Source: Escherichia phage vB_EcoM_JB75
Sequence record: MH355584.1
Length of the DNA stretch: 64,000 nucleotides
Strand: one strand, 5' to 3'
The first letter of the stretch is position 1; every line of letters begins with the position of its first letter. The translations under genes and the position numbers were made by a program. This document shows positions 32,118 to 58,407 of the stretch, in pieces. The notes below the pieces were generated by a model. It saw only the letters and a list, made by a program, of their open reading frames with translations, was not told the DNA's origin and made no database searches.

Positions 32118-32190
32118 TGGGAATTAGCCAAGTTGGTAAGGCATAGCACTTTGACTGCTAGATGCAAAGGTTCGAGTCCTTTATTCCCAG
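32118..32190 (+). tRNA. tRNA-Gln (anticodon UUG)
   Basis: Cloverleaf by eye: acceptor TGGGAAT/ATTCCCA, anticodon arm TAGCA-CTTTGAC-TGCTA, T-loop GGTTCGAGTCC. Confidence 0.8.
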
Positions 32191-32191
32191 C

Positions 32192-32278
32192 GCGAGAATG
32201 GTCAAATTGGTAAAGGCACAGCACTTAAAATGCTGCGGAATGATTTCCTTGTGGGTTCGAGTCCCACTTCTCGCACCA
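32192..32278 (+). tRNA. tRNA-Leu (anticodon UAA)
   Basis: Acceptor GCGAGAA/TTCTCGC, anticodon loop CTTAAAA, long variable arm, encoded CCA. Confidence 0.8.
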
Positions 32279-32283
32279 AATTT

Positions 32284-32357
<74 letters not shown>

Positions 32358-32367
32358 ATTTAATTTA

Positions 32368-32441
32368 CTCCGTGTAGCTCAGTTTGGTAGAGCGTCTGCT
32401 TTGGGAGCAGAATGTCGTAGGTTCAAATCCTGCCACGGAGA
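32368..32441 (+). tRNA. tRNA-Pro (anticodon UGG)
   Basis: Acceptor CTCCGTG/CACGGAG, anticodon arm TCTGC-TTTGGGA-GCAGA, T-loop GGTTCAAATCC. Confidence 0.8.
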
Positions 32442-32443
32442 CT

Positions 32444-32533
32444 GGAGGCGTGGCAGAGTGGTTTAATGCACCGGTCTTGAAAACCGGCAGTCGCTCCGGC
32501 GACTCATAGGTTCAAATCCTATCGCCTCCGCCA
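32444..32533 (+). tRNA. tRNA-Ser (anticodon UGA)
   Basis: Acceptor GGAGGCG/CGCCTCC, anticodon loop CTTGAAA, long variable arm, encoded CCA. Confidence 0.8.
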
Positions 32534-32538
32534 GTTTT

Positions 32539-32614
32539 GCTGATTTAGCTCAGTAGGTAGAGCACCTCACTTGTAATGAGGACGTCGGCGGTTCGATTCC
32601 GTCAATCAGCACCA
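32539..32614 (+). tRNA. tRNA-Thr (anticodon UGU)
   Basis: Acceptor GCTGATT/AATCAGC, anticodon arm CCTCA-CTTGTAA-TGAGG, encoded CCA. Confidence 0.8.
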
Positions 32615-32615
32615 A

Positions 32616-32690
32616 GGCCCTGTAGCTGGAAGGTTCAAGCAAGCGACTCATAATCGCCAGATGGTGGTTCAATTCCACCCAGGGCCACCA
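32616..32690 (+). tRNA. tRNA-Ile/Met (anticodon CAU; T4-type tRNA-Ile reads AUA after modification)
   Basis: Acceptor GGCCCTG/CAGGGCC, anticodon loop CTCATAA, T-loop GGTTCAATTCC, encoded CCA. Confidence 0.7.
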
Positions 32691-32703
32691 AATTAAGAAT
32701 TAA

Positions 32704-32790
32704 GGGGAGTTATCCCGTAGAGGTAGCGGTGTGGACTGTAAATCCATTGTCATTGCGACTCGGGTGGTTCGACTCCATCACTCCCCACCA
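32704..32790 (+). tRNA. tRNA-Tyr-like (anticodon GUA), long-variable-arm type
   Basis: Acceptor GGGGAGT/ACTCCCC, anticodon arm GTGGA-CTGTAAA-TCCAT, variable arm, T-arm GGTGG-TTCGACT-CCATC, CCA; D-arm is weak so it could be a variant or pseudo-tRNA. Confidence 0.55.
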
Positions 32791-32794
32791 ATTT

Positions 32795-32869
32795 GGATGT
32801 GTAGCTCAGTGGTAGAGCAGTTGACTGTTAATCAATTGGTCCATGGTTCGAATCCATGCATGTCCGCCA
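32795..32869 (+). tRNA. tRNA-Asn (anticodon GUU)
   Basis: Acceptor GGATGTG/CATGTCC (two GU pairs), D-arm GCTC-AGTGGT-AGAGC, anticodon loop CTGTTAA, T-arm CATGG-TTCGAAT-CCATG, CCA. Confidence 0.7.
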
Positions 32870-32873
32870 AATA

Positions 32874-32949
32874 CGAGGCATAGCTCAGAAGGAAGAGCAA
32901 GGACCTTCTAAGTCCTGGGTCGTAGGTTCGATCCCTACTGCCTCGACCA
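32874..32949 (+). tRNA. tRNA-Arg (anticodon UCU)
   Basis: Acceptor CGAGGCA/TGCCTCG, anticodon arm AGGAC-CTTCTAA-GTCCT, T-arm GTAGG-TTCGATC-CCTAC, CCA. Confidence 0.8.
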
Positions 32950-51340: not shown

Positions 51341-51868
51341 ATGAATGCTAAAGATATTTTCAACTTGGTAAACTACAATGATGGTAAATTTAAATCTGAA
51401 GCTCAAAGCAAGTTCTTTAATGATGTCTCAATCGGTGGTGAAATCACGGTTGATGGAGGACAAATTTACAAATCCCGTTGGAATTGGATCGTTATTATTG
51501 ATGAGATTGGTATTGTAGAAATTTACAAGAATACGAATAAAAATCGTACATTACACTGGTCTCGTGATACTAACGAACAGTACAAAAAGGATAAAGCATC
51601 TAAATTATCTCGTGTAACTCAAGAAGATATTGAGTTCATCAAGAAAGATATTTTGATGTATGATAACTTAATTGCTGAAGAGCAAGCTGTTATTGATAAA
51701 TTTGATGAGATTAAAGCTTCTCGTGAAATTCCTGATTTTATGAAAGAATCAGTAAATGAACGATACACTCTCATTTCAGAGCGTATTGAAACTTACAAAA
51801 AGCAAAGAGCTGAACGCCAGAATACTCTTCGGAAGTTTGAAGAACGGTTAAAGACGGTACTCGCATAA
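51341..51868 (+). CDS. hypothetical protein
   Basis: Track ORF from 51281 overlaps promoter; ATG at 51341 behind GGAGGAA; 175 aa. Confidence 0.5.
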   Translation: MNAKDIFNLVNYNDGKFKSEAQSKFFNDVSIGGEITVDGGQIYKSRWNWIVIIDEIGIVEIYKNTNKNRTLHWSRDTNEQYKKDKASKLSRVTQEDIEFIKKDILMYDNLIAEEQAVIDKFDEIKASREIPDFMKESVNERYTLISERIETYKKQRAERQNTLRKFEERLKTVLA

Positions 51869-52339: not shown

Positions 52340-53230
52340 ATGTCAGTAGTAATTAATAATGTCAATGCAGTAATTAAATCTTTAGTTAATAAAAAAATGA
52401 TGAATGAATGGACTGTACTTCGTCGTGGAGAGCCAGATAAATTTTTTCATAGATTTAACCCAACTTTGGATTTGAATGTTATTGACAGAGATGTTCATGC
52501 CAAAATTTTAGATAAATTTAAAGTTGATATTGGATTTGGATTAGAAAAACATTTACAGCGAACAAACGGGTCTGGAATGAGTTTATCTAATCGCATCATG
52601 AAAGCCCTTAATAAAATTGGAGCGTTGTCTCGTATTAACGCGAGTGAAATCCTTCGCAATTATAATAAAGGATATGACCTTTATGGTCGACTAATGCCGA
52701 AATTATCATTTGACCAAATGATTGCGGATTTGTGGGAAAATCAACGACGATTATTAGCATTAGGCGCTCGATTAGCTAAAGGTCTAGATAAACAAATGAT
52801 TTTTAAGACCAATAATACAGAAGACCTTAAATGCTTTAAATTTAGTACTCGTGGAGATGATTATTACATCAGAGCTCACTCTACAGATTATGTCAATATG
52901 GGGCATCATCTCTGTTTAGCTTTTGAAGTTTTAAAAGAAGCTGGAACATTAGAATATTCATCTGGTGCTAAATGTCCGATTGGTTCAAGTTGTATTTTAA
53001 TTTATCGCCCGGATGAATCCAGTTCATCTAAATTACCTACAAAACCTGTACCAGTTCGCAGTAATGAAAAACATTCTGAACAAATTGCTTATTTTAATAA
53101 GCAGATTGAAGAGCTAAATATTTCTATTCAGCAATATGATGATGAAATTTTCAGACTATCTGGATTGAGTAGTAAAGCTAAATCTGAGCGTGAAAAATTA
53201 ATTAAAATCGTTGATTTACTTAAATCTTAA
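52340..53230 (+). CDS. paralogous family protein 1 (C-terminal coiled coil)
   Basis: Track ORF from TTG 52325; ATG 52340 behind GAGGAA; about 296 aa. Confidence 0.55.
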   Translation: MSVVINNVNAVIKSLVNKKMMNEWTVLRRGEPDKFFHRFNPTLDLNVIDRDVHAKILDKFKVDIGFGLEKHLQRTNGSGMSLSNRIMKALNKIGALSRINASEILRNYNKGYDLYGRLMPKLSFDQMIADLWENQRRLLALGARLAKGLDKQMIFKTNNTEDLKCFKFSTRGDDYYIRAHSTDYVNMGHHLCLAFEVLKEAGTLEYSSGAKCPIGSSCILIYRPDESSSSKLPTKPVPVRSNEKHSEQIAYFNKQIEELNISIQQYDDEIFRLSGLSSKAKSEREKLIKIVDLLKS

Positions 53231-53238
53231 GGAACACC

Positions 53239-54267
53239 ATGAAAACTCGTTCTCAAATTGAAGATATGGTTCGTAATGCCAGCTATACTCGTGATGTTAT
53301 GACATTTTTGTGTGAAAATAATTTAGACCCTGATAAAGTTAATCGTGTTATTCATCACTTTAAGTATACGAATAGCAGTGAATGGGTGCGTAATTTTAGT
53401 AAAGCAGGGTATATTACACAAATGACTGCTCGTGAACAGCTCACCGATTTCTGTAAAACTATTGATTATAAAAATCCTTTGATTGTTCAAGGCGTTGGTC
53501 AAAGTAAGGTCGATTTATCATCTGGATTTTTCAATCCAAATCATTATCGAATTGAATGGAGATTTATTGCTCTGTTCCGTAGACAATTAAAGCAAATTTT
53601 GTCGACGGCTAGTCGATTAAAAGGTTCTGACATTAACTTAAAGAACCTGAAATTTGATGGTTATACTCTTCAGATGGAAGTAAGACCGTTAAAAGAAAAT
53701 AATAGAACTGCACGAATTAGCTTTAAGCCTAATACTAAAAATTCTCTTTCAATTTGTGAATGTCTTAAATCACAGCTGACAGAAGCATTTAAGTATATGG
53801 ATGTTGTTGCTGCTGTTCAATCTAAGATTTTACCTCGTTTTGAGCGAAATTGGGAACATACAACAACATATGAACTTGATATGATCGTTTCATTTAAATA
53901 TGAATTTTTGAGAAAGGATGAAATTGTTCAAGAGAAAAAGCAGGAAGTGCAAGATACCTTAAATTTAAATTTATCCAATTACTTATCAAACGATCCTAAA
54001 TGTTGGATGTACAGTTCAAGTAACATAGATGCATGTAAACTTAATAAAGTGAGTTTTCTTCCTACTGAAAATTCAAATTTTAAACCTGTAGAAAAATGGC
54101 ACGCTGATGCGATTGAAAAGTCTCTTAAGGCAGTAGATGATGAACTCGTTAAAGCGACCAATGAAATGCTAGAAGCTGAAAAGGCGTTAGAACAAGCTCA
54201 GTCAAGGGTTCAAAATCTGGCAAAGCAACGTTCTAAACTGAACAATGCACTAAATGCACTGAACTAG
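53239..54267 (+). CDS. paralogous family protein 2 (C-terminal coiled coil)
   Basis: 342 aa; internal RFIALFRRQLKQILSTASRL motif shared with neighbours. Confidence 0.55.
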   Translation: MKTRSQIEDMVRNASYTRDVMTFLCENNLDPDKVNRVIHHFKYTNSSEWVRNFSKAGYITQMTAREQLTDFCKTIDYKNPLIVQGVGQSKVDLSSGFFNPNHYRIEWRFIALFRRQLKQILSTASRLKGSDINLKNLKFDGYTLQMEVRPLKENNRTARISFKPNTKNSLSICECLKSQLTEAFKYMDVVAAVQSKILPRFERNWEHTTTYELDMIVSFKYEFLRKDEIVQEKKQEVQDTLNLNLSNYLSNDPKCWMYSSSNIDACKLNKVSFLPTENSNFKPVEKWHADAIEKSLKAVDDELVKATNEMLEAEKALEQAQSRVQNLAKQRSKLNNALNALN

Positions 54268-54298
54268 TTTACTTTGCCACAAGGATGTGGTATAATGT
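54265..54298 (+). promoter_or_regulatory. T4-type early promoter (inside the paralogue array)
   Basis: TAGTTTACTTTG ... TGTGGTATAATGT. Confidence 0.55.
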
Positions 54299-54321
54299 TT
54301 TTACTTTCTACTGAGGAGATT

Positions 54322-55326
54322 ATTATGACTCGTAACGAATATATCAAATCATTCAATAGCGTTATTGATGATAAAGCTATACCGATGTTTGGCCAAAATA
54401 GCGTTCTTTCTATTATCAATCAATGGCTCAATAGTGTTGATGCAAGTATTGTTTCTTCTACTAAATTTATTCATGAAATTCGTAAAATTTCTAGCCGTGT
54501 AGATAAAGATGTTATCAAGAAAACCTTTAAAGAGTCTCGTCTTCTTTCATATTTGGTTAATCGGGATATTCTTGGTAATTTTGGGAAAGAAATTAAACGA
54601 ACTAAAGATGTAGTAGGATACAATTGGTTCGGTGATGTTAATTCTTATCATCTTAATATTAAAGAAGACCCTGAGAATATTTTTACTCGTCGTTGGATCA
54701 GTAATTTCAGACTTTTTAAGAAACAAATTCTAAAATCAGCTTCTAAATTATGTTATGGCGATTATCGTCAAATTCATCCTTTGGCTTCTGATATGATTAT
54801 CATAAAAGAATATGAACTTGATAAAAATAAAGTATCTATTTTTGTGAATTATGGATTTTTTACACCAGAAACTAACCAAAAGAATATTAATAAATTTTTC
54901 TCAATTGCTAGCACTATAACTCGTCAATTAGAGACCGCATTACTTTGTATGGAAACAGTAGAAAATATTCATACATATCCTTTTAAGAATATATGCGGTT
55001 GGGAAGGATATAAACTCGTAATTAGCCTTCGTGAAGTGAAATGTGCTTATTCACCTACTGATAAAGAAATTTACCAACAAAAATGTGATGAAATTGTGAA
55101 TACTCCTAAAGAAGAAACTACCCTTGAGGAACTAATGGAATGTCTTGATGATTCACCTGAACCGATAGAAATTCGTCCAGAAGTTATTGCACTAGAAAAA
55201 GCTTATAAAGAAGTTCTAGAAATTTCTAATAAAGCGCAGAAAGAATATGAGCAGGCTAAAAGGATTTGGGAAGAATCTGTTAATCGTCTTGATCGTCTGG
55301 AACAAGCTTTACAGTTAATTAAGTAA
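54322..55326 (+). CDS. paralogous family protein 3 (C-terminal coiled coil)
   Basis: Track ORF from 54274 overlaps promoter; ATG 54322 behind GAGGAG; about 334 aa. Confidence 0.55.
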   Translation: MMTRNEYIKSFNSVIDDKAIPMFGQNSVLSIINQWLNSVDASIVSSTKFIHEIRKISSRVDKDVIKKTFKESRLLSYLVNRDILGNFGKEIKRTKDVVGYNWFGDVNSYHLNIKEDPENIFTRRWISNFRLFKKQILKSASKLCYGDYRQIHPLASDMIIIKEYELDKNKVSIFVNYGFFTPETNQKNINKFFSIASTITRQLETALLCMETVENIHTYPFKNICGWEGYKLVISLREVKCAYSPTDKEIYQQKCDEIVNTPKEETTLEELMECLDDSPEPIEIRPEVIALEKAYKEVLEISNKAQKEYEQAKRIWEESVNRLDRLEQALQLIK

Positions 55327-55378
55327 TTTAAAGCCAAGGATGGCTCGGAGTATAAATCATTAACCAAGTGAGAAGAAC

Positions 55379-56305
55379 ATGAAAACTCGTAAACATTATA
55401 TTGATTATTTTGACAGTCTTATTACTAAACATCGTAATTATCAGATAGGACACAGAGCAGTAATCAATAATATTCTTCGTGATTTTTTAGACTATATTGG
55501 ATGGGAAAACCATATTTGTAAAGATACACAAAATGCGTATTCACATTCTCTTGGTTCTTTGCTCGAGTGGTTCAAACGTTCCCGATTACTATCTTCTGTG
55601 ATAGCTGTTAATAATGTTAAAAAATTTATGTATCCAAGCTACATTGAGACTAATGTATCAAATGCTAGTGTTGTTACATTTAATATTATTAACGACGTGA
55701 AAAGAACTTATTTAGAAGAATGGTTTTCTAAAGATAGTAAAGAAAAATTTGCTAGTGAATTTTCACACGAATTCAATAATAACGTGAATATGCTTTTTAA
55801 GCATTCTCGTAGACTGTTTTGTCATGGTGATAACCGTACTATTAATGTGAATGTAAAAGACTGGGTTACGGCTAAATTCACTCCATCGTCCCAGAATGGG
55901 CAATTTGAATTGTCAATTATCATTTGTGCTCCGCACGAGATATATAAAAATCTTCCGTATATGAAACCACGCGAAGCTAATAAACACAATGAAACTATTA
56001 GTTCTTTGGCTTATAATTTACGCGTGTTATTATCTGATATGGATGTAGTCAAATCCTTTGATGATAATACGAATTATGGTCTTTCGCTGTTTGAAACTAA
56101 ATTTGTTATTAAATTAAAGGACCCTAGTGAATTTAAACCTACCCCAAAATCCAATCATGGAAATGATACTATGAAAGAAGAACGCGAATATCTCAGTGCC
56201 CGTTTGATTGAAGTTGAAAAACAGATTGAAGAGCATACTAAAGTTCTTAAGGCTTTAACCGCCAAAGCAAATGGTTTACGTAATGCTATTGAGGTATTGA
56301 AATGA
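55379..56305 (+). CDS. paralogous family protein 4 (C-terminal coiled coil)
   Basis: 308 aa; N-terminus MKTRKHYIDYFDSLI parallels MKTRSQIEDMVRN of protein 2. Confidence 0.55.
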   Translation: MKTRKHYIDYFDSLITKHRNYQIGHRAVINNILRDFLDYIGWENHICKDTQNAYSHSLGSLLEWFKRSRLLSSVIAVNNVKKFMYPSYIETNVSNASVVTFNIINDVKRTYLEEWFSKDSKEKFASEFSHEFNNNVNMLFKHSRRLFCHGDNRTINVNVKDWVTAKFTPSSQNGQFELSIIICAPHEIYKNLPYMKPREANKHNETISSLAYNLRVLLSDMDVVKSFDDNTNYGLSLFETKFVIKLKDPSEFKPTPKSNHGNDTMKEEREYLSARLIEVEKQIEEHTKVLKALTAKANGLRNAIEVLK

Positions 56306-56693: not shown

Positions 56694-56936
56694 ATGACCA
56701 AGCGTAAAGAATATATGGAGGCTGCTGAAAAGGCAGTCCGTGAATTAGCAATAGCTTATTATAATGAACATGGTAAATTTCCTGATAGATACAGCGTGCT
56801 TAAATCTGCTTTAACTCGTTCATATAAAAATATGCTATCAGAAGTAAGTGATATTATATACAAACATAAAGAACAAACGGGCCAAAGTCTTGATTACGAC
56901 GAGACTTTTAAACAAGTACTAGGAATTAAGGAATAA
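56694..56936 (+). CDS. hypothetical protein
   Basis: 80 aa coupled ORF. Confidence 0.5.
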
Positions 56937-56937
56937 T

Positions 56938-57201
56938 ATGTTTAAAGTATATGGTTATGATAGCAACATTCATAAATGTGTGTATTGCGATAATGCAAAA
57001 CGTCTTTTGACCGTGAAGAAACAGCCGTTTGAATTTATCAACATTATGCCGGAAAAAGGTGTTTTTGATGATGAGAAAATTGCTGAGCTTCTGACTAAAC
57101 TAGGTCGTGATACTCAAATCGGCTTGACAATGCCCCAGGTATTTGCTCCTGATGGAAGTCATATTGGTGGATTTGACCAACTGCGAGAATATTTTAAATG
57201 A
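56938..57201 (+). CDS. nrdC: glutaredoxin/thioredoxin NrdC
   Basis: 87 aa; active site CVYC; matches recalled T4 NrdC. Confidence 0.9.
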   Translation: MFKVYGYDSNIHKCVYCDNAKRLLTVKKQPFEFINIMPEKGVFDDEKIAELLTKLGRDTQIGLTMPQVFAPDGSHIGGFDQLREYFK

Positions 57202-57413
57202 TGCTCGAAGGAACTGACTATATTCATGATTACCGCGGAAGCGCGGTATATGTAGGTGATGAAGTTGCAGTTTATTATGGGTATGGAACTTTGATGACAG
57301 CCAAGGTTATTCAAATTAAAAATAATCGTGCTAAACTCGAAGTTTATTATTCTAATGGTGAAAAGTCTATTTCTAAGTGGAAATACGGCGATTGTATGGT
57401 TAAATTGGGGTAA
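57198..57413 (+). CDS. hypothetical protein
   Basis: 71 aa coupled ORF. Confidence 0.5.
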   Translation: MMLEGTDYIHDYRGSAVYVGDEVAVYYGYGTLMTAKVIQIKNNRAKLEVYYSNGEKSISKWKYGDCMVKLG

Positions 57414-57415
57414 AT

Positions 57416-57586
57416 ATGATTTACGATATTAATGTATCAAGAACTCCGTCAATGGTTACTATTCCAGCCGAAGAACTAGATCGTCTTCAGAAAATTGAAG
57501 AGCTTCTTTGGGAAATTGAATCTGATTTGCCATCAGGATTAGAATCCTGGATTGATTATGAAGAACTTAATAAGCTTCGGGGTTAA
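57416..57586 (+). CDS. small hypothetical protein (not in ORF track, 56 aa)
   Basis: ATG at 57416 right after upstream stop. Confidence 0.35.
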   Translation: MIYDINVSRTPSMVTIPAEELDRLQKIEELLWEIESDLPSGLESWIDYEELNKLRG

Positions 57587-57708
57587 ACCTTGGTGGGCGG
57601 CTAGATGGGAAACTGTAGAGCCAGAGCCGGAAGAACCGGTTTACACTGATGAAGAAACAGTATATAATGAACCAACGATAAATGACTTAATTGATATGGA
57701 GATGGGAC

Positions 57709-58194
57709 ATGATTACAGTAGATAAGTGGTTTAGAATTAATCGTGTTGATACAGGGCTATGTAATTACTGGCCGGAACTTAGTGCAGGTACTGTCTTTAA
57801 AGTTCGTGAACTTGCAAAAGAATGTGAAGATGATATAGAACCTGATACTGGAATTATTGAAATTGAACTTTCCGACGGAAAGATTATTAACATCTATGAT
57901 AAGCCAATTACATACTGGTGTTTGTGGAATACTGAATCCGTTGAAAATGGCGAAATTGAAGAAGTTGTAGAGAGAACTAGCCAAGATGTTCAGAAGCCTA
58001 AAGCCGCTTTTCAAGGTGAACGTATTTCATACGCATTAGCTAAATTAGCTGCGCAAGAAAATAATGATGGCTATGAAGGTAACCTGATGCAAGCTGCCGC
58101 AGAGTACATTGAATGGCTTGAAACTCAAATTTCTTTTTCTGACCAAAAGATTCGGCAATATAAGCGATTGCATCAAATGTTTTACAATACTTGA
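57709..58194 (+). CDS. hypothetical protein (start uncertain)
   Basis: Track ORF from TTG 57691; ATG 57709 behind GGAGATGGG gives 161 aa. Confidence 0.5.
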   Translation: MITVDKWFRINRVDTGLCNYWPELSAGTVFKVRELAKECEDDIEPDTGIIEIELSDGKIINIYDKPITYWCLWNTESVENGEIEEVVERTSQDVQKPKAAFQGERISYALAKLAAQENNDGYEGNLMQAAAEYIEWLETQISFSDQKIRQYKRLHQMFYNT

Positions 58195-58407
58195 AAAAAC
58201 TCAAAATTCTTTTTCTGACAGGACATTTTAATGAAAACCGAATTGGTTTATACTGAAAAGTTAAATGGCGGTAAGGTTTGGAAACTTTTTATTAAAGGAC
58301 ATTCTACGGACCCTCATATGACCACTTGCGTAGGAACCTATTCTCGTCCTACTAAAAAGATGATTCGACAGTATAAACGATTGCATCGAATGTTTTACAA
58401 TACTTAA
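58124..58407 (+). repeat. local direct repeats (about 20 and 34 bp, two copies each) around the end of the 57709-58194 gene
   Basis: CTCAAATTTCTTTTTCTGAC (58124) vs CTCAAAATTCTTTTTCTGAC (58199); TATAAGCGATTGCATCAAATGTTTTACAATACTT (58160) vs TATAAACGATTGCATCGAATGTTTTACAATACTT (58374). Confidence 0.6.
58231..58407 (+). CDS. small ORF sharing a duplicated C-terminus with the preceding gene (not in ORF track, 58 aa)
   Basis: Ends KMIRQYKRLHRMFYNT, near-duplicate of KIRQYKRLHQMFYNT at 58150-58194. Confidence 0.35.
   Translation: MKTELVYTEKLNGGKVWKLFIKGHSTDPHMTTCVGTYSRPTKKMIRQYKRLHRMFYNT

Follow-up and report, generated by a model that had tools for sequence, protein, structure and literature searches.

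Positions 52,340 to 56,305 of a 64,000-nucleotide stretch of Escherichia phage vB_EcoM_JB75 (sequence record MH355584.1; we refer to the whole stretch as the window) hold four consecutive genes on the + strand, which encode proteins of 296, 342, 333, and 308 amino acids. By the annotation of phage RB51, these are, in order, nrdC.6, nrdC.5, nrdC.4, and nrdC.3. The locus raises two questions: are the four proteins related to each other, and what would a phage do with such an array? A first-pass annotation had described them as divergent paralogues of about 300–340 amino acids with a shared architecture, and our analysis bears this out: the similarity among the four exceeds chance, and profiles and predicted structures are needed to recognize it. 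We consider it probable (roughly 60%) that they form an ancient tandem set of paralogues from one Straboviridae-specific family and act as early coiled-coil oligomers that block different host immune proteins.

Among the four proteins, BLASTP finds just one significant pair, nrdC.4 and nrdC.3 (E = 6e-4); it is not sensitive enough for this set. An all-against-all alignment, which the first-pass annotation had suggested as a check, would speak against paralogy if done with plain BLASTP and speaks for it if done with profiles and predicted structures. For nrdC.4 and nrdC.3, the relationship is clear: phrog_1435 matches both (E = 5.7e-168 and E = 6.4e-101), which places them in one family, a hidden Markov model of nrdC.4 matches orthologues of nrdC.3 (E = 1e-15 to 1e-19), and profile–profile alignment with hhalign gives E = 7e-13. 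A match to PF26897 is precomputed on every homologue of nrdC.4. The other two proteins belong to separate database families. nrdC.6 matches phrog_2257 over its full length (E = 2.1e-151), and 105 of its 105 homologues carry PF26899. nrdC.5 also has a full-length match, to PF23882 (400.9 bits, E = 5.6e-120; the gathering score is 30 bits). Beyond nrdC.5, PF23882 gave 11.4 bits for nrdC.3 (E = 0.22) and no match for nrdC.4 or nrdC.6. An exhaustive phmmer search with nrdC.3 matched only its own cluster and fragments and so yielded no bridge.

T4 records share about 93% amino acid identity with the nrdC.5 of the window, which lies at the same position. More divergent nrdC.5-like genes (about 28% identity) were found by tblastn in Gapriver- and Dhakaviruses, and these were included in the nrdC.5 profile before running hhalign. 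A joint profile of nrdC.4 and nrdC.3 then aligned to nrdC.5 with E = 1.5e-6 (probability 90%) across 252 collinear columns. This similarity extends outside the coiled-coil tails: with the tails removed, E is 1.6e-5 and the score is 43.8, versus 13.7 ± 2.5 in 60 column shuffles. For nrdC.6, collinear similarity outside the coil is borderline. Its alignment to nrdC.4 and nrdC.3 has E = 0.045–0.06 (0.045 without the tails, when it beats 60 of 60 shuffles), its alignment to nrdC.5 has E = 0.14–0.5, and a merged profile of nrdC.5, nrdC.4, and nrdC.3 reaches E = 1e-3. Two conserved helices, one of them the basic helix described below, anchor both the alignment of nrdC.6 to nrdC.4 and nrdC.3 and its alignment to the merged profile. 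Remaining matches in Pfam, NCBIfam, PADLOC, and PDB sequences were rejected as coiled-coil noise (DUF4164, CENP-F, SEC10/PgrA, BrxC, and designed helical repeats), and none of them exceeded a curated cutoff. BrxC was the only hit among the defense-system models of PADLOC (E = 0.007, 12 bits).

The membership of nrdC.6 comes mainly from structure and synteny. AlphaFold2 models cover nrdC.6 (predicted local distance difference test [pLDDT] 78) and nrdC.4 (pLDDT 81.5), and we compared both to BFVD with Foldseek. The first-pass annotation had listed structure prediction as a check. The elements come in an identical order in the two models. A helical domain at the N terminus is followed by a helix-kink-helix and a short helix; next are two beta-hairpins with a long helix between them; and after a linker modeled with low confidence, one or more long helices form the C terminus. 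The nrdC.4 model matches nrdC.3 of fPS-65 (E = 4e-9) and, with probability 1.0 in each case, nrdC.6 of JS10 (E = 3.7e-6) and of Sf25 (E = 3e-5). Furthermore, six distant proteins are matched by both models (E = 1e-8 to 1e-4); these are from Pectobacterium phage PM2, Enterobacter phage IME523, Acinetobacter phages fHyAci03, Acj9, and Acj61, and Serratia phage CBH8. The nrdC.3 representative was absent from the BFVD matches of the nrdC.6 model. As an aside, in nrdC.6 of Shigella phage Sf25 (378 amino acids), an internal stretch of about 82 residues, from the alpha/beta domain to the start of the coil, is exactly duplicated in tandem.

Two features are shared by all four proteins, and both had been noticed in the first pass. 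Each protein ends in 49 residues that keep one unbroken heptad register, with hydrophobic residues at 79–93% of the a and d positions (versus 20–26% of the remaining positions). In heptad shuffles with this 49-residue window, P is at most 0.004 (for nrdC.3, up to 0.0135 with a 42-residue window). Counting back from the C-terminal “...L-K”, the register is identical in all four. The other feature is an internal basic helix. The four strings that had been listed for it are all present (net charge +2 to +6), they are mutually aligned by hhalign, and they form the best-conserved block inside each family. For example, N134–Q152 of nrdC.6 is invariant in 47 homologues, and the conserved positions of nrdC.4 are W124, F128, I135, K141, G145, and D146. 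The proteins thus have in common a basic helix followed by G-D and a heptad tail in the same register.

How old is the array? The order nrdC.6, nrdC.5-like gene, nrdC.4 is kept in every Dhaka- and Gapriver-type locus that we fetched. Mosigvirus mar005P1 has nrdC.6, nrdC.5, and an nrdC.3-type gene without nrdC.4, and Tequatroviruses have both nrdC.4 and nrdC.3. (The nrdC.3-type genes of Mosigvirus were recognized by locus analysis and not by phmmer.) A search for related loci in IMG/VR returned close relatives only; we reached more distant arrays through the Foldseek targets and by direct inspection of Acj61, an Acinetobacter phage of the Twarogvirinae. There, the Foldseek targets p121 (304 amino acids) and p120 (330 amino acids) are encoded by neighboring genes that share a strand and lie a short way upstream of nrdC. 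Both have heptad tails, and the helix “LLGIEGRFAKRDNR” is recognizable in p120, although single-sequence hhalign comparisons of the Acj61 proteins to the family profiles were not significant. By Foldseek, the superfamily reaches T4-like phages of Acinetobacter, Pectobacterium, Enterobacter, Serratia, Erwinia, Klebsiella, and Yersinia. Because the tandem genes are present in Acj61 and are syntenic across genera, the family is ancient in Straboviridae rather than the product of a recent burst. Acj61 also has another annotated pair of tandem duplicates, Acj61p076 and p077 (L023, 9028–11322), which are two 372-amino-acid open reading frames (ORFs) next to gene 40, annotated with “putative copy of Acj61p076”. 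As far as we checked, this pair is unrelated to the nrdC.3–nrdC.6 family.

The first-pass annotation had called the array rapidly diversifying, which is right in relative terms only. Within Tequatrovirus, the ratio of nonsynonymous to synonymous substitution rates (dN/dS) is 0.10 for nrdC.6, 0.19 for nrdC.5, 0.20 for nrdC.4, and 0.32 for nrdC.3, whose alleles go down to 60% amino acid identity. The neighbors nrdC, gp49, nrdC.1, nrdC.8, nrdC.9, and nrdC.10 have values of 0.01–0.07. The array is therefore several-fold to about 30-fold above its neighbors, yet below 1 throughout: these old genes are under net purifying selection. Variability peaks at about residues 20–60 and in the linker (180–280 in nrdC.5), in contrast to the conserved basic helix and coil. 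Members are also lost. LH2 has a deletion of nrdC.4, G8 carries the gene in split form, a T2 record has split versions of both nrdC.4 and nrdC.6, and four metagenomic contigs have a fusion of nrdC.5 to nrdC.3 with no nrdC.4. Given these deleted, split, and fused forms, the array genes are dispensable in nature. The fusion variant has a truncated nrdC.5 (a 115-amino-acid ORF), followed by a 299-amino-acid fusion in which a middle segment of nrdC.5 continues, across a junction at non-homologous positions, into the C-terminal half of nrdC.3 (L024, 3570–4900, and L025, 1931–3261; P0119).

As to function, the first-pass annotation had been unable to match any of the four to a characterized protein, and this is outdated for nrdC.5. 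A T4 deletion mutant fails to plate on E. coli ECOR17 or on MG1655 with dsr1 from ECOR17, and expression of T4 nrdC.5 alone, which is described as an early gene, restores plating on Dsr1 cells (Srikant, Guegler & Laub, eLife 2022, PMC9391042). Dsr1 is a SIR2 defense of ECOR17 (PMC9391042), and its tetratricopeptide repeat (TPR) sensor recognizes phage major capsid proteins (2026 preprint, PMC12803255). Literature searches for DUF7235, anti-Dsr1, and Dsr1 inhibitor returned nothing beyond PMC9391042. In the HIDEN-SEQ preprint (bioRxiv 10.1101/2025.11.20.689424), nrdC.3–nrdC.6 are non-essential in T4 and Bas37, nrdC.1 is an anti-Septu gene, and bas37_0203 is an anti-Druantia III gene. We considered whether bas37_0203 lies inside the array and rejected this, as it maps to the orthologue of nrdC.8, two genes upstream. 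In addition, gp49.2 inhibits OLD (PMC13096335). With published antidefense roles for nrdC.8, nrdC.1, and gp49.2, the array sits in a dense counter-defense neighborhood. Overall, the host-interaction half of the first-pass proposal of “host-interaction or exclusion” is supported by the anti-Dsr1 activity of nrdC.5, by non-essentiality, and by the neighbors, and we found no evidence for exclusion or toxicity.

We propose the following mechanism. Each protein has four parts. The N-terminal helical domain is variable, and behind it lies a conserved basic helix-kink-helix with a G-D turn at its end. Next come a beta-beta-alpha-beta-beta domain and, beyond a variable linker, a C-terminal helix of about 48 residues with heptad repeats. 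As early, non-essential accessory proteins, the paralogues would be joined into oligomers by their coiled coils, and the globular heads of each paralogue would bind and block a different host immune protein before the phage makes its late proteins. The target of NrdC.5 would be the SIR2 NADase Dsr1. Because nrdC.5 is early and sufficient, and because Dsr1 senses the major capsid protein, binding is probably direct, and by analogy to DSAD1 and DSR2 (see below) the most likely site is the capsid-sensing TPR sensor. nrdC.6, nrdC.4, and nrdC.3 could then be specificity variants for other targets. The antidefense role was demonstrated for the T4 allele of nrdC.5; for the other three members, we infer it.

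Several observations weigh against this proposal. The sequence link of nrdC.6 is marginal, both in the family pairs and with the merged profile. The Foldseek template modeling scores of the predicted structures are only 0.4–0.5, which we attribute to differences in how the domains are placed and oriented. Since dN/dS is under 1 for every member, positive selection is not demonstrated. The phenotype is for nrdC.5 only, the allele that was studied is T4's and not the one in the window (about 93% identical), and nrdC.5 may act on Dsr1 indirectly. Oligomerization is suggested by the heptads alone. Finally, under the conditions listed in the portion of the HIDEN-SEQ preprint that was covered, nrdC.3, nrdC.4, and nrdC.6 had no significant fitness effect; the nearest to one was for bas37_0201 (nrdC.6), with a log2 fold change of -0.73 (q = 0.81).

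The most serious alternative, which we think unlikely, is that the four are true paralogues that serve as early host-takeover or regulatory factors (for example, of host or phage metabolism or of the timing of late proteins), so that nrdC.5 rescues growth on Dsr1 cells indirectly. The mechanism of nrdC.5 is unpublished, a strongly conserved basic helix could bind nucleic acid or membrane, and an old, syntenic family under net purifying selection that lacks phenotypes for three members (in the HIDEN-SEQ data just described) would suit such a role. But nrdC.5 alone restores plating where Dsr1 is the only added defense (PMC9391042), our family searches detected no DNA-binding, RNA-binding, or enzyme family, and the genes are variably lost, are dispensable in laboratory strains, and lie amid proven antidefense genes. 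A bolder version of the immune-blocking proposal also seems to us unlikely. It holds that the scaffold is a reusable blocker of sensors: the alpha+beta core would resemble conserved phage neck and tail proteins, and the paralogues, held in a coiled-coil oligomer, would be early decoys or plugs for different sensors of conserved phage structural proteins, such as the TPR sensors of the Dsr1/Avs7 type and others. If so, one ancient family would give Straboviridae a broad and modular means of evading immunity.

It is very unlikely, in our judgment, that only nrdC.5, nrdC.4, and nrdC.3 are homologous and that nrdC.6 resembles them in size and coiled-coil tail by convergence or composition. The weak profile E values allow this, as do the separate families in Pfam and PHROGs and the failure of the nrdC.6 model to retrieve nrdC.3. 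However, it does not account for the cross-matches of the nrdC.4 model to two nrdC.6 models, the six distant proteins found with both, the identical order of elements outside the tail, the tail-less alignment on the same two helices that outscores every shuffle, or an adjacency that E. coli phages share with those of Acinetobacter. Structural or morphogenetic proteins akin to tail-terminator or tail-completion proteins are a highly improbable alternative: the array proteins do not show the combination of a strong structural match, late expression, and a virion role that would be expected of a protein like lambda gpU. Least credible of all is that these are thioredoxin-like proteins or accessories of nucleotide reduction. 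Many GenBank records do give these genes “thioredoxin” as a product name, but Pfam and NCBIfam contain no thioredoxin or glutaredoxin match to them even at E ≤ 1, and the AlphaFold2 folds of nrdC.6 and nrdC.4 are not thioredoxin-like. The name comes from the locus label nrdC.N, which merely means an ORF next to nrdC. More generally, “thioredoxin” labels are widespread on nrdC.3–nrdC.6 and on other nrdC.N ORFs, and gp49.2 has been labeled “ribonucleotide reductase”; both types of label look like artifacts that spread from locus names.

The features of the array are listed in the table. Across about 4.7 kb at the array, the window matches Escherichia phage vB_EcoM_Shinka at 99.7% identity and some 460 further Tequatrovirus genomes at 90–96%. 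In RB51, the array sits between nrdC.7 and nrdC.2, with the glutaredoxin gene nrdC and endonuclease VII downstream. Relative to the program-made list of ORFs, we corrected the starts of nrdC.6 (ATG at 52340) and nrdC.4 (ATG at 54325, behind the Shine-Dalgarno sequence GAGGAG). Two proteins had been said to begin with MKTR; this applies to nrdC.5 and nrdC.3, while nrdC.4 begins with MTRNEY, and MKIKTR occurs in the nrdC.5-like genes of other genera. There are no Rfam families within the array region, and no extra copies of the nrdC.3–nrdC.6 family elsewhere in the window.

Table. Features of the nrdC.6–nrdC.3 array and two flanking antidefense genes (window positions; aa, amino acids)
Feature	Position	Strand	Description
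nrdC.6	52340..53230	+	296 aa; PF26899 Phage_T4_Y05B, phrog_2257; most divergent paralogue
nrdC.6 basic helix LWENQRRLLALGARLAKGL	52730..52786	+	aa 131–149; aligns with its counterparts in the other paralogues
nrdC.6 C-terminal heptad-repeat helices	53081..53227	+	aa 248–296; P = 0.0005; AlphaFold2 helices 243–272 and 278–295
nrdC.5	53239..54267	+	342 aa; PF23882 DUF7235, phrog_2351; orthologue of T4 nrdC.5
nrdC.5 basic helix RFIALFRRQLKQILSTASRL	53560..53619	+	aa 108–127; high-confidence alignment to the nrdC.4 helix
nrdC.5 C-terminal coiled coil	54118..54264	+	aa 294–342; a/d positions 93% hydrophobic; equaled by 0 of 2000 shuffles
T4 early-type sigma-70 promoter GTTTACtttgccacaaggatgTGgTATAATg	54267..54297	+	consensus match in the gap between nrdC.5 and nrdC.4
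nrdC.4	54325..55326	+	333 aa; PF26897 Phage_T4_Y04OP, phrog_1435
nrdC.4 basic helix RWISNFRLFKKQILKSASKL	54691..54750	+	aa 123–142; AlphaFold2 helices 116–130 and 132–140, pLDDT about 90
nrdC.4 C-terminal coiled coil	55177..55323	+	aa 285–333; single 48-residue helix in the AlphaFold2 model
nrdC.3	55379..56305	+	308 aa; PF26897/phrog_1435; closest paralogue of nrdC.4; fastest-evolving member
nrdC.3 basic helix MLFKHSRRLFCHGD	55790..55831	+	aa 138–151; aligned to nrdC.4 QILKSASKLCYGD
nrdC.3 C-terminal coiled coil	56156..56302	+	aa 260–308; P = 0.004
nrdC.8	51341-51868	+	orthologue of Bas37_0203; anti-Druantia III
nrdC.1	56694-56936	+	anti-Septu

An early promoter before the third gene had also been noted, and it is real as a match to the consensus (GTTTAC-17 nt-TGgTATAAT). 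Its first base is the last base of the stop codon of nrdC.5 (TAG, 54265–54267). The match is kept with zero or one mismatch across 11 Tequatrovirus loci; one of these is LH2, where the deletion of nrdC.4 places the promoter before nrdC.3. As a consensus match, it may act as an internal early promoter. Within the spacer (54275–54292, +), there is a hairpin, CCACA-AGGA-TGTGG, followed by the T-run TAATGTTTTT, which could be a weak terminator for the nrdC.6–nrdC.5 transcript that overlaps the putative nrdC.4 promoter.

Some other features of the window are worth recording. Between nrdC and pin (57198–57725, +), there are only short ORFs (71, 56, and 57 amino acids), and a full-length gp49.2 (106 amino acids in RB51) is not obvious there, as in Bas38, so this phage may lack the anti-OLD gene. 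Between pin and gene 49, there is a 58-amino-acid ORF (58231–58407, +), which is annotated in Bas35 as bas35_0193. This ORF and pin (57691–58194, +) have the same last 15 residues, ...IRQYKRLH(Q/R)MFYNT*, with nearly the same 45 nucleotides; judging from the repeat, it looks like the 3' end of pin was duplicated around an inserted small ORF. Farther away, ten tRNA genes are clustered at 32118–32946 (+), which is the usual tRNA region of T-even phages; the score of one of them (32706–32785, +) is barely over the Rfam gathering threshold.

If the four proteins are paralogues on one scaffold, and if T4-like phages of many hosts carry tandem relatives of them, then NrdC.5, which so far has been an orphan anti-Dsr1 factor with no mechanism or recognized relatives, would gain three relatives, and nrdC.6, nrdC.4, and nrdC.3 would become candidate inhibitors of other defenses. 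The conserved parts (the basic helix and the coil) could be separated from the variable parts (residues 20–60 and the linker) in studies of mechanism and specificity. Also, database annotation could be corrected by combining three “unrelated” DUFs into one and by dropping the “thioredoxin” labels, which are false. This result is useful and testable, and it is not surprising, because counter-defenses are now expected to be common among the early accessory genes of T-even phages.

The genes themselves, the phenotype of nrdC.5, and the pairing of nrdC.3 with nrdC.4 in Pfam were already known. In the searchable literature, we found no paper that links nrdC.6, nrdC.5, and nrdC.4/nrdC.3 as one fold family, and no paper on the conservation of the tandem family out to Acinetobacter phages. 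The proteins of the window are clear members of PF26897, PF26899, and PHROGs 1435, 2351, and 2257, but Pfam and PHROGs keep nrdC.6, nrdC.5, and nrdC.4/nrdC.3 as three unrelated families without a function, whereas here they form one superfamily. The closest known protein is T4 NrdC.5 (Y05A_BPT4, DUF7235), of which the window's nrdC.5 is the orthologue. nrdC.4, nrdC.3, and nrdC.6 have its architecture and, by profiles and structures, belong to its fold family, but they lie outside DUF7235 and have no known target.

There is also a functional analogy to DSAD1 of phage SPbeta, which inhibits the SIR2 defense DSR2 by binding to the DSR2 protein (PMC10981675, PMC11087589, PMC10973363). In both cases, an early phage protein neutralizes a SIR2 NADase that senses a late structural protein: the tail tube for DSR2 and the major capsid protein for Dsr1. 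None of our searches with the array proteins retrieved DSAD1. Its architecture appears to be different from that of NrdC.5. Finally, the array can be compared to the known antidefense sets of T-even phages, which include the dmd-tifA-adfA “anti-TA island”, the internal proteins IPI/IPII/IPIII, and the local neighbors nrdC.8, nrdC.1, gp49.2, and Pin (a Lon inhibitor). Like these, the array genes are non-essential, clustered in early regions, and variably present, and each would act on one host system. Unlike the local neighbors, which are unrelated small proteins, nrdC.3–nrdC.6 are a family of paralogues of about 300–340 amino acids on a coiled-coil scaffold.

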